Below are positions 1-2,261 of a DNA stretch of 61,734 nt, in pieces. The stretch is from Bdellovibrionales bacterium (GTDB taxonomy: Bacteria; Bdellovibrionota_G; JALEGL01; JAGRMV01): positions 1 to 61,734 of the forward strand of contig JAGRAZ010000002.1 in the NCBI GenBank assembly GCA_020434345.1, read 5' to 3'. Numbering within the stretch: the stretch's first letter is position 1; every line of letters starts with the position of its first letter. The notes under the pieces are model-generated. The model worked only from the letters and a program-made list of their open reading frames with translations, searched no databases and was not told the origin of the DNA. The position numbers were made by a program, and so were the translations under genes.

Positions 1-227
1 GTTTCTTTTTTGCTTATAGTTACAAAATTGTTTGAAATAAATACGGCTTCTATATAATCAAACTGAAAAAGAGCTTGAGCCAAAGGCGAATCTTTAGCTT
101 CCTCTACAGTTTTACATTCTATCATTTGATTAGGAAAAAATACATGGCTGGCTACAAACTTCAGCATTTTAGGATTAGGTGTGCTTTCGGTATATATTTC
201 TACAAATTTTGGTATATCATTATTCAT
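1..227 (-). CDS. NifU/Nfu N-terminal scaffold-domain protein, Bacteroidota-like (partial, runs off window start; not in ORF track)
   Basis: Manual translation from ATG 227: MNNDIPKFVEIYTESTPNPKMLKFVASHVFFPNQMIECKTVEEAKDSPLAQALFQFDYIEAVFISNNFVTISKKE. TPNP..LKF, SPLA..LF and VFIS.NFVT are Nfu_N motifs. Confidence 0.8.
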   Translation of the reverse strand, partial: MNNDIPKFVEIYTESTPNPKMLKFVASHVFFPNQMIECKTVEEAKDSPLAQALFQFDYIEAVFISNNFVTISKKE

Positions 228-244
228 GTCAGAAACTATTTTTT

Positions 245-253
245 GCAAAGGTA
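245..253 (-). promoter_or_regulatory. Bacteroidota-type -7 promoter element (TAnnTTTG) for the nfu-like gene
   Basis: Reverse complement reads TACCTTTGC, 17 nt upstream of ATG 227. Confidence 0.6.
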
Positions 254-340
254 AGTTTATTAGAAAACATATTTGGTTTAGAAGCTAACATTTAATGTTG
301 ATTAACACAAATATAAATCATTATACAATCTAAAATTATG

Positions 341-349
341 TACCTTTGC
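341..349 (+). promoter_or_regulatory. Bacteroidota-type -7 promoter element (TAnnTTTG) for purF
   Basis: TACCTTTGC lies 10 nt upstream of the purF ATG. There is no Shine-Dalgarno, as is typical of Bacteroidota. Confidence 0.6.
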
Positions 350-359
350 CCCATCTTTT

Positions 360-2261
360 ATGAGTGATTCTATAAAACACGAATGTGGTATAGCTATGGT
401 AAGGCTTTTAAAGCCTGTTCAGTACTATTTAGATAAATATGGAACAGCATCTTACGCCCTAAATAAGATGTATTTGCTAATGGAAAAACAGCACAATAGA
501 GGTCAAGACGGTGCGGGAATAGCTTATGTGAAATTTGACACAAAACCGGGGCAAAAATACATAGAAAGGATAAGAAGCGTAAAGCAACAGCCTATACAAG
601 ATATTTTCAGAAGAGTTTTTAAAGAATTTAATAAATCTACAAAAGGAATACCTAAAAATAATATAACAGGAAGTTGGTTAAAAGAAAATGTTACTTCTGT
701 TGGAGAGTTATATTTAGGTCATTTAAGATACGGCACACATGGTGGCAATACTATAGAATCTTGTCATCCTTTTATACGTACTAATAATTGGCGAAGCCGA
801 AATTTAGTAATGGCAGGAAATTTTAATCTTACCAATGTAGATGAGCTTATACAGTTTTTAATAAATATAGGTCAGCATCCTATAGAAGAAAGAGATACTA
901 TAACGGTAATGGAAAAAATAGGGCATTATTTGGATAGAGATGTGCAGCGTATTTTTGATAAATATAAAGCCAACCAATACGATAATAAAACATTAAGCGA
1001 TTTTATAGAAAAAGAGTTAGATATAGCCACCATTTTAAAAAGTGCTGCTAAAGATTTTGACGGAGGATTTTTAATGGCAGGCTTAGTGGGCAGTGGCGAT
1101 GCTTTTGTGCTACGAGATGCCCACGGAATAAGACCGGGATATTATTATGCCGATGATGAAGTAGTTGTAGTAGCGTCAGAAAGACCGGCTATTCAAACCA
1201 CTTTTAATTTAACCACCGAAAAAGTTAAAGAAATACCGGCAGGCAATGCTCTTATTATTAAAAAAGAGGGTAAAATAAGCATGCAAAGGTGTTTGCCGGA
1301 AAAAGAAAAGAAATCTTGTAGTTTTGAGCGTATTTATTTCTCCAGAGGGACAGATGCCGATATTTATAAAGAAAGATTGAGTTTAGGATATAGACTCACT
1401 AATAAAGTAATGAAAGCTGTAAATTATGACTATGATAATACAGTTTTCTCTTTTATACCCAATACCGCAGAAGTAGCTTTTTATGGCTTGTTAAAAGGAG
1501 TAGAAGAGCATATTAATCAGTATAAAGTAAAGGAAATAGCAAAAAATCCTAATTTAGATACTGAAAAATTAAACCAATTATTAAGATTAAAACCAAGAGT
1601 AGAAAAAATAGCAGTAAAAGACGTAAAAATGAGAACATTTATTACGGAAGATGCTGCAAGAGACGAAATGGTTTCGCACGTTTATGATATTACTTATGAT
1701 TCTATAAAACGAAATATAGACACGCTGGTAATGTTAGATGACTCCATAGTAAGAGGAACAACTTTACAAAAAAGTATATTGTCTATTTTAGATAGATTAG
1801 GTCCTAAAAAAATAATAATTGTTTCATCTGCTCCCCAAATTCGATATCCTGATTGTTATGGAATAGATATGGCTAAAGTGGGTGATTTTATTGCTTTTCA
1901 AGCTGCAACTGCACTTTTACAAGAGAGAAATCAAGGCAATATTGTCGATGAGGTCTATCAACAATGTCTTTTGCAGAAGAGCCTTGAAAAAGAAAAAATT
2001 ATCAACGCTGTAAAAAAAATCTATGAACCCTTTACGCTAGAAGAATTAAATAAGAAAATCTCACAAATGCTTACTCCAGACGACGTACTGTGCCCTGTAG
2101 AAATCATCTACCAGACAATTGAAGGTCTTCATGATGCTATTCCAGATCATAAAGGTGATTGGTATTTTACGGGTAACTACCCTACACCGGGAGGCAATAA
2201 AGTCGTAAACCAAGCCTTTATCAATTATATCGAAGGCAACAATTCAAGAGCTTATTCATGA
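360..2261 (+). CDS. purF: Amidophosphoribosyltransferase, long Bacteroidota-type (possibly chimeric)
   Basis: N-terminal IKHECGI with catalytic Cys after a short propeptide; GHLRYGTHG; PRPP-binding MLDDSIVRGTT; SSAPQIRYPDCYGIDM. Confidence 0.95.
   Translation: MSDSIKHECGIAMVRLLKPVQYYLDKYGTASYALNKMYLLMEKQHNRGQDGAGIAYVKFDTKPGQKYIERIRSVKQQPIQDIFRRVFKEFNKSTKGIPKNNITGSWLKENVTSVGELYLGHLRYGTHGGNTIESCHPFIRTNNWRSRNLVMAGNFNLTNVDELIQFLINIGQHPIEERDTITVMEKIGHYLDRDVQRIFDKYKANQYDNKTLSDFIEKELDIATILKSAAKDFDGGFLMAGLVGSGDAFVLRDAHGIRPGYYYADDEVVVVASERPAIQTTFNLTTEKVKEIPAGNALIIKKEGKISMQRCLPEKEKKSCSFERIYFSRGTDADIYKERLSLGYRLTNKVMKAVNYDYDNTVFSFIPNTAEVAFYGLLKGVEEHINQYKVKEIAKNPNLDTEKLNQLLRLKPRVEKIAVKDVKMRTFITEDAARDEMVSHVYDITYDSIKRNIDTLVMLDDSIVRGTTLQKSILSILDRLGPKKIIIVSSAPQIRYPDCYGIDMAKVGDFIAFQAATALLQERNQGNIVDEVYQQCLLQKSLEKEKIINAVKKIYEPFTLEELNKKISQMLTPDDVLCPVEIIYQTIEGLHDAIPDHKGDWYFTGNYPTPGGNKVVNQAFINYIEGNNSRAYS

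Follow-up and report, generated by a model that had tools for sequence, protein, structure and literature searches.

A hybrid purF gene at the end of a Bdellovibrionales contig is very probably an in-frame assembly chimera with a Chitinophagales genome

This study deals with purF at the beginning of contig C67, a contig of 61,734 bp from a Bdellovibrionales metagenome-assembled genome (MAG), G000, which consists of 144 contigs with a total of 1.82 Mb and a guanine-plus-cytosine (GC) content of 38.9%. The whole contig is the stretch of DNA that was analysed and is called the window here. The region in question is its first 1.9 kb and is therefore terminal. A preliminary description, made from the sequence alone, had proposed that inside purF a piece of foreign DNA is joined to native sequence, and had left two explanations side by side, a chimera made in assembly and a genuine recombination across phyla. 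Our analysis demonstrates that this gene is made up of two lineages, identifies the donor, and shows both unmixed parents and where the crossover lies. It also bears out the choice as it was put and strongly favours the first explanation. We consider it very probable that the purF gene of the window is an inter-genome assembly chimera rather than a biological feature, an in silico join that we infer from assembled contigs, not from reads. The features of the locus are as follows.

3 to 248, minus strand: 5' fragment (82 amino acids) of a gene for an Nfu/NifU-N-terminal-domain protein, cut by the contig end (Pfam Nfu_N, E=4.5e-20); from the Chitinophagales donor.
249 to 359, no strand: intergenic region of the donor with two divergent -7 boxes, TACCTTTGC, at 245-253 (minus) and 341-349 (plus), and no Shine-Dalgarno sequence.
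360 to 2261, plus strand: purF open reading frame (ORF), 633 amino acids, protein P0001; hybrid.
360 to 1802, plus strand: purF codons 1-481, sequence of the Chitinophagales donor, with 12 differences in 1443 nucleotides from the purF of donor genome G070 (contig C11).
1803 to 1834, plus strand: crossover zone of at most 32 nucleotides, the codons for PKKIIIVSSAP, which can be identical in both parents.
1835 to 2261, plus strand: native 3' part of the long-form purF of the host genus, with host-like codons (z=0.9).
2258 to 5905, plus strand: native large single-chain purL (formylglycinamidine ribonucleotide synthase, 1215 amino acids; Pfam FGAR-AT domains), overlapping the purF stop by 4 nucleotides.

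The host itself does not belong to the Bacteroidota, on the evidence of its DnaK. This protein, encoded at 17927-19822 of the window, is 83% identical to that of kin in the same family and 76% identical to that of kin in the same order, against 61-64% to the DnaK proteins of three named Bacteroidota genomes and 61% to that of G070.

A break in composition and codon usage runs through purF. The GC content is 31.7% in 1-1871 versus 39.6% in 1872-5905. The local counts reported earlier, 11 of 60 bases at 601-660, 14 of 60 at 1561-1620, 21 of 60 at 2101-2160 and 27 of 60 at 2161-2220, were all reproduced, as were the isoleucine counts: the last ATA codon of purF lies at 1863-1865, and ATA is used for 0 of the 12 Ile codons thereafter. 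In codons 1-502, ATA accounts for 31 of 45 Ile codons versus this 0 of 12 (Fisher p=1.4e-5), and ATC for 0 of 45 versus 7 of 12 (Fisher p=3e-6). The 5' part of purF takes ATA for 69% of Ile, TTA for 62% of Leu and AGA for 62% of Arg, while the corresponding shares in the genome are 14%, 20% and 24% (binomial p=2.6e-17, 4.6e-9 and 1.7e-5, respectively). Among the 1184 ORFs of at least 200 amino acids in the genome, the highest share of ATA among Ile codons is 0.58, and none reaches 0.69. A per-codon log-likelihood change-point scan against the host codon table gave no information, since it placed the break after codon 79 and 52 of 500 permutations did equally well. The overall codon bias of the host is weak, and for this reason we used a G statistic on synonymous codons, with 741 host segments of 504 codons as its empirical null. 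By this measure codons 1-504 give G=230.9, far from the host null (mean 59.5, standard deviation 14.9, maximum 126.3; z=11.5), while codons 505-633 are ordinary for the host (z=0.9). The suspected codon shift is confirmed by these counts and by the G statistic. Tetranucleotide usage behaves likewise: the distance of 1-1871 from the genome mean is matched or surpassed by 3 of 905 windows across the genome, while 1872-3742 is ordinary, and among the contig ends of the MAG the 1.8-kb tip is the only tetranucleotide outlier of low GC. The MAG's most extreme tetranucleotide outliers are the starts of contigs C44, C68 and C111 (1-2800 each, GC 0.43-0.45), which consist of tandem repeats of about 336 bp of one gene family that has more copies on C48 and C36. 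Evidently the assembly is interrupted by these repeats at the three contig starts, a phenomenon distinct from the purF tip.

The 5' piece can be traced to one Chitinophagales genome. Residues 1-504 of P0001 are 99.8% identical to P0122 (MCB9227324.1), a protein of 632 amino acids encoded on a 196.9-kb contig of a MAG labelled 'Chitinophagales bacterium' at NCBI, with E303D as the single substitution. Over the full length, the two proteins are identical up to GIDM (residue 504) except for this substitution, and then fall to about 46%. Proteins of the Logan assemblies match the 5' part of P0001 in the same way, and further relatives stand at 99, 96, 94 and 80%. In a tree of residues 1-504, P0001 lies at a distance of 0.002 from P0121 and P0122, within a Chitinophagales clade. 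The DNA of the donor was found by a search of 401 genomes of its order, in which G070, the representative of the donor species, carries on contig C11 a purF whose product is 100% identical to P0122. Its DNA identity to the window is 98.3% over 1-359 (donor locus L101), 99.17% over 360-1802 and 89.9% over 1803-1871, and drops to 49%, effectively unalignable, over 1872-2261. The view that the first 1.87 kb is Bacteroidota-like and joined in frame is therefore upheld, now with a Chitinophagales genome at 98-99% DNA identity behind it. The donor locus has a GC content of 32.8%, and its purF and the genes next to it are rich in ATA codons, with ATA in 35 of the 53 Ile codons of purF, so that the odd codon usage of the 5' part is simply the donor's own. 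We found no other copy of Nfu in the host MAG, and no match to the Nfu fragment in the 3-kb flanks of 80 Bacteroidota purF loci. The donor is a widespread organism of activated sludge, since part of the stretch is found in 20 runs from 9 studies.

The regulatory DNA of the tip tells the same origin. The sequence TACCTTTGC occurs exactly twice in the 61.7 kb, ahead of the two divergent genes of 1-360 and in both cases 10-20 nucleotides upstream of the ATG, and AGGAG is absent before the starts of both genes. It has been reported that promoters of Bacteroidetes have the -7 consensus TAnnTTTG and that their genes start without a Shine-Dalgarno sequence (PMC6847099). Both genes match this style with no difference seen, which supports the conclusion that 1-359 is unmodified native regulatory DNA of the donor. 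The preliminary description was correct on the -7 boxes of these two genes and on their missing Shine-Dalgarno sequences. Its further statement that the rest of the window uses AGGAG is confirmed only in part, as the Shine-Dalgarno enrichment proved modest in a genome scan (348 versus 146 control ORFs).

On the other side of the junction, the 3' end of purF and purL lie in their native host context. This follows from the host-like codons of the 3' purF part and the match of purL to the codon usage of the genome, from an adjacency with overlap of purF and purL that was found only in locus L012 of the sister species G001 (contig C68 of that genome, 1-3456), and from the tree of residues 505-633, in which P0001 is sister to P0360, the PurF of L012, in a clade other than the Chitinophagales one. 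In none of 80 Bacteroidota loci does purL lie 3 kb or less from purF. The gene for P0360 is a complete and unmixed long-form purF that overlaps a large purL. The amino acid identity of the window to this locus is 67.4% for the 3' part of purF, 59% for its 5' part and 66% for purL. Among 5.8 billion protein clusters, no match above 71% to residues 503-633 was found except the window itself and a fragment of 92 amino acids from G001. The latter lies on a contig of 522 bp (G001:C268, locus L011) with 98% DNA identity to 1981-2502 of the window, while the own purF-purL of G001 reaches only about 67% DNA identity; the contig probably comes, as a fragment, from a G000-like strain and was placed in the G001 bin by error. 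It starts 110 bp after the conserved block of purF, which suggests that the assembly graph also breaks near this block there. By homology the 3' part of purF is itself Bacteroidota-type, with 65-69% identity to Flavobacteriales-like proteins. A single best-hit lineage at the phylum level would therefore mislead, as the host's own purF also gives Bacteroidota-type hits. When the two halves of purF were assigned separately, as had been proposed, both came out as Bacteroidota-type at the phylum level, and the split between them appeared at finer resolution.

Both unmixed parents and the point of crossover can be seen in assembled contigs. For this we used Logan contigs from four activated-sludge or wastewater runs of four studies (X1, X2, X3 and X6), placed on 1-3800 of the window; their depth is one value per contig and serves as a qualitative guide only. 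Two contigs of donor type, record 4 of X1 and record 22 of X3 (the latter at depth 64), match the window to 1871 and then continue with AGTAAGATGCAAGAT, which encodes SKMQDF, the donor protein's own continuation. At the other end of the window, X6 record 25 runs 1.5 kb beyond the first base. From 1803 to 2087 the window is matched by a host-like contig, X1 record 5, whose upstream part is a different in-frame purF sequence ending in AGCATCTTACGAATGCTCAGTCGGCTTTCA, which encodes SILRMLSRLS in host-like codons and shares 12 of 30 nucleotides with the window. With 10 differences in 285 bases, this contig has an identity of about 96.5% to the window; neighbouring host-side contigs are 98-99% identical. 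The donor part occurs in X3 and X6 at depths of 13-66 with the host part all but missing, and X1 and X2 have both parts, on separate contigs. None of the four runs contains a contig that spans from before 1803 to after 1871. Nor was the mosaic purF recovered in other assemblies, runs or proteins (5.8 billion clusters; four runs), and searches of Joint Genome Institute (JGI) metagenome contigs for the wobble pattern of TALLQERNQGN and for the 30-nucleotide native loose end gave no hits.

The alleles on the two sides place the crossover within 1803-1834, at most 32 nucleotides. Non-donor alleles begin at 1835: the donor-like contigs of X1, X3 and X6 differ from the window at 1835 and 1841, and G070 differs at 1835, 1841, 1842, 1850 and 1856, as well as at 1802, 1805 and 1826. 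The donor contig of X3 has 5 differences over 1649-1871, of which only two positions, 1835 and 1841, are listed; judging by this count, agreement with the window probably extends through 1834 in some donor strains. The crossover zone lies inside the most conserved coding block of the gene (PKKIIIVSSAPQIRYPDCYGIDM), and 1800-1920 is among the regions richest in exact matches of at least 14 nucleotides across 80 long-form purF loci. A switch at a conserved motif near 1.87 kb, as first described, is right at the protein level, where the change follows GIDM (residue 504, base 1871), while the nucleotide crossover lies slightly upstream, in the zone given above.

How such a gene may have come about is best explained by the assembly itself. 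In this reading, positions 1 to about 1802, with the Nfu fragment, the promoter region and purF codons 1-481, would be a piece of Chitinophagales DNA that lies outside the host chromosome. A short-read assembler would most likely have joined this piece to the long-form purF of the host at a shared stretch of up to 32 nucleotides. The path would have crossed at homologous positions, so that the frame was kept and a full-length hybrid ORF resulted, and the binner would then have brought the foreign tip of 1.8 kb into the MAG on a native contig of 61.7 kb. It has been reported that interspecies chimeric contigs occur in 69% of near-complete MEGAHIT MAGs in CAMI (Critical Assessment of Metagenome Interpretation) benchmarks, and conserved regions are named as one cause of them (bioRxiv 10.64898/2026.10.15.759294). 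As in known chimeric contigs, the segments of the window come from different phyla and meet in a housekeeping block conserved at the nucleotide level; also as in these, the foreign piece is short, terminal and binned by way of a long native contig, here in a MAG whose marker-based contamination is 0.22%. Unlike them, the join of the window is in frame within homologous genes and so mimics a mosaic gene, and it is known here from contigs alone. Tools such as metaMIC, DeepMAsED, ResMiCo and GUNC can detect chimeric contigs. We favour the chimera because both unmixed parents are public, the mosaic is unique, the shared stretch is short and the junction sits near a contig end.

Several of our results do not sit easily with this explanation and weigh against it. 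The longest exact stretch shared with the G070 alleles is 20 nucleotides (1806-1825), which is below the usual k, and a shared length of 32 nucleotides requires a donor strain like that of X3, for which we have the difference count described above. X1 record 5 is another strain, so it shows the unmixed gene in the species and not in this strain. The native 5' part of the host's purF was not found elsewhere in the MAG. A weak match to short purF at C89:31-537 was rejected when it proved to be GlmS. The gene upstream of purF in L012 (3599-4816, minus strand) encodes a membrane-anchored protein of 405 amino acids, low in complexity and rich in Cys pairs in a zinc-ribbon-like manner; it has no homologue in G000, and the missing native end could not be located by synteny. 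None of the 20 runs with part of the stretch holds more than 41% of it, and the source run is not recognisable. Finally, a real recombinant whose donor co-occurs in the sample should likewise show a contig break within the donor-like patch.

This last point leads to the alternative that survives best, although we regard it as very unlikely: a real and very recent homologous or homology-facilitated recombination by which the 5' four-fifths of purF and the upstream DNA of the Bdellovibrio-like predator were replaced by DNA of Chitinophagales, possibly its prey. The contig would then stop inside the patch since a co-occurring donor makes the patch a repeat, and donor and host-like sequences do co-occur in X1 and X2. 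The in-frame join at homologous positions and the intact ORF of 633 amino acids also agree with recombination; in an assembly chimera, however, the frame is preserved automatically, because the join falls at homologous positions. The earlier transfer suggested by the Bacteroidota-type purF and purL that the host genus already has would be a further point in its favour. Against this, the segment lies within the present strain diversity of the donor species (98-100% at the nucleotide level), which leaves no time since the transfer, and the mosaic is seen in no independent assembly or protein, while the unmixed genes are found in the host-like contig of about 96.5% identity and in the sister species. 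Identity over at most 32 nucleotides flanked by a divergence of about 40-50% is a very poor substrate for recombination but an ordinary link in a de Bruijn graph. No second junction is visible, as base 1 of the contig is still donor DNA, and Bacteroidota promoters without Shine-Dalgarno sequences would have to drive an essential gene of the host. Interspecies homologous recombination in housekeeping genes gave rise to the classical mosaic pbp genes that are known from Streptococcus and Neisseria. The purF of the window shares with them in-frame blocks of sharply different ancestry on either side of a breakpoint in a conserved region. However, the pbp cases involve close species (a few to about 20% divergence), two junctions and spread in the population, whereas the parents of purF are about 40-50% divergent, with one junction and no second carrier. 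A real join would be a snapshot of a cross-phylum gene replacement through some 30 shared bases, caught before amelioration, which we judge to be very unlikely. If true, it would offer a rare direct view of gene replacement between predator and prey, but nothing that we found favours a real join.

An in-vitro chimera, formed by template switching between purF genes during library polymerase chain reaction (PCR) or whole-genome amplification and then faithfully assembled, would likewise arise at short shared stretches with the frame kept and would explain the hybrid even if the assembler's k exceeds the shared length, but such molecules are rare, individually different and seldom win the consensus path, and the position at a contig end is better explained by a graph artefact, so that we hold this to be the least probable origin, at an extremely small chance.

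The hybrid has parents of one protein type, and it is uninformative on function, since both parents are long-form PurF. In 80 loci, homologues align end to end with residues 1-632 of P0001 at 56-63%. Judged from these comparisons at the sequence level, the long form of about 630 amino acids, with its class-II glutamine amidotransferase N-terminus, is a divergent PurF subtype. Current models cover this subtype poorly. The matches of P0001 to Pfam GATase_7 and GATase_6 are weak, around or below the gathering cut-offs, and likewise those of P0360; to the NCBIfam purF model TIGR01134 P0001 scores 119 bits (119-123 with P0360) against a cut-off of 350.

The host genus has long purF genes (about 630 amino acids) that overlap a single-chain purL of 1215 amino acids (window 1835-5905; L012), while in all other kin searched a short purF (450-470 amino acids) stands beside a split purL (about 735 amino acids), together with purQ. 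The native parts of the window are closest to those of a Vicingus-like Flavobacteriales MAG, with 66.9% identity for the 3' part of purF and 58% for purL. The tree of the 3' part nests the host genus among Bacteroidota, yet its codons are host-like. The purF-purL pair of the genus thus looks like a candidate for an older, genuine cross-phylum replacement by Bacteroidota-type genes.

These findings have practical consequences for the genome and for the reading of similar genes. In its deposited form the MAG includes 1.8 kb of Chitinophagales DNA, and through it a hybrid PurF stands in public protein databases like a real protein. We recommend that the bases before about 1803 be removed from contig C67 and that purF of this genome be handled as lacking its 5' part. 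More generally, a chimera that keeps the frame of a conserved housekeeping gene can look like recombination across phyla, and it passes both marker checks and best hits at the phylum level. For this predator, the protein of 633 amino acids is best regarded as a hybrid that does not exist in nature, and no evidence of gene transfer should be read from the tip of its contig.

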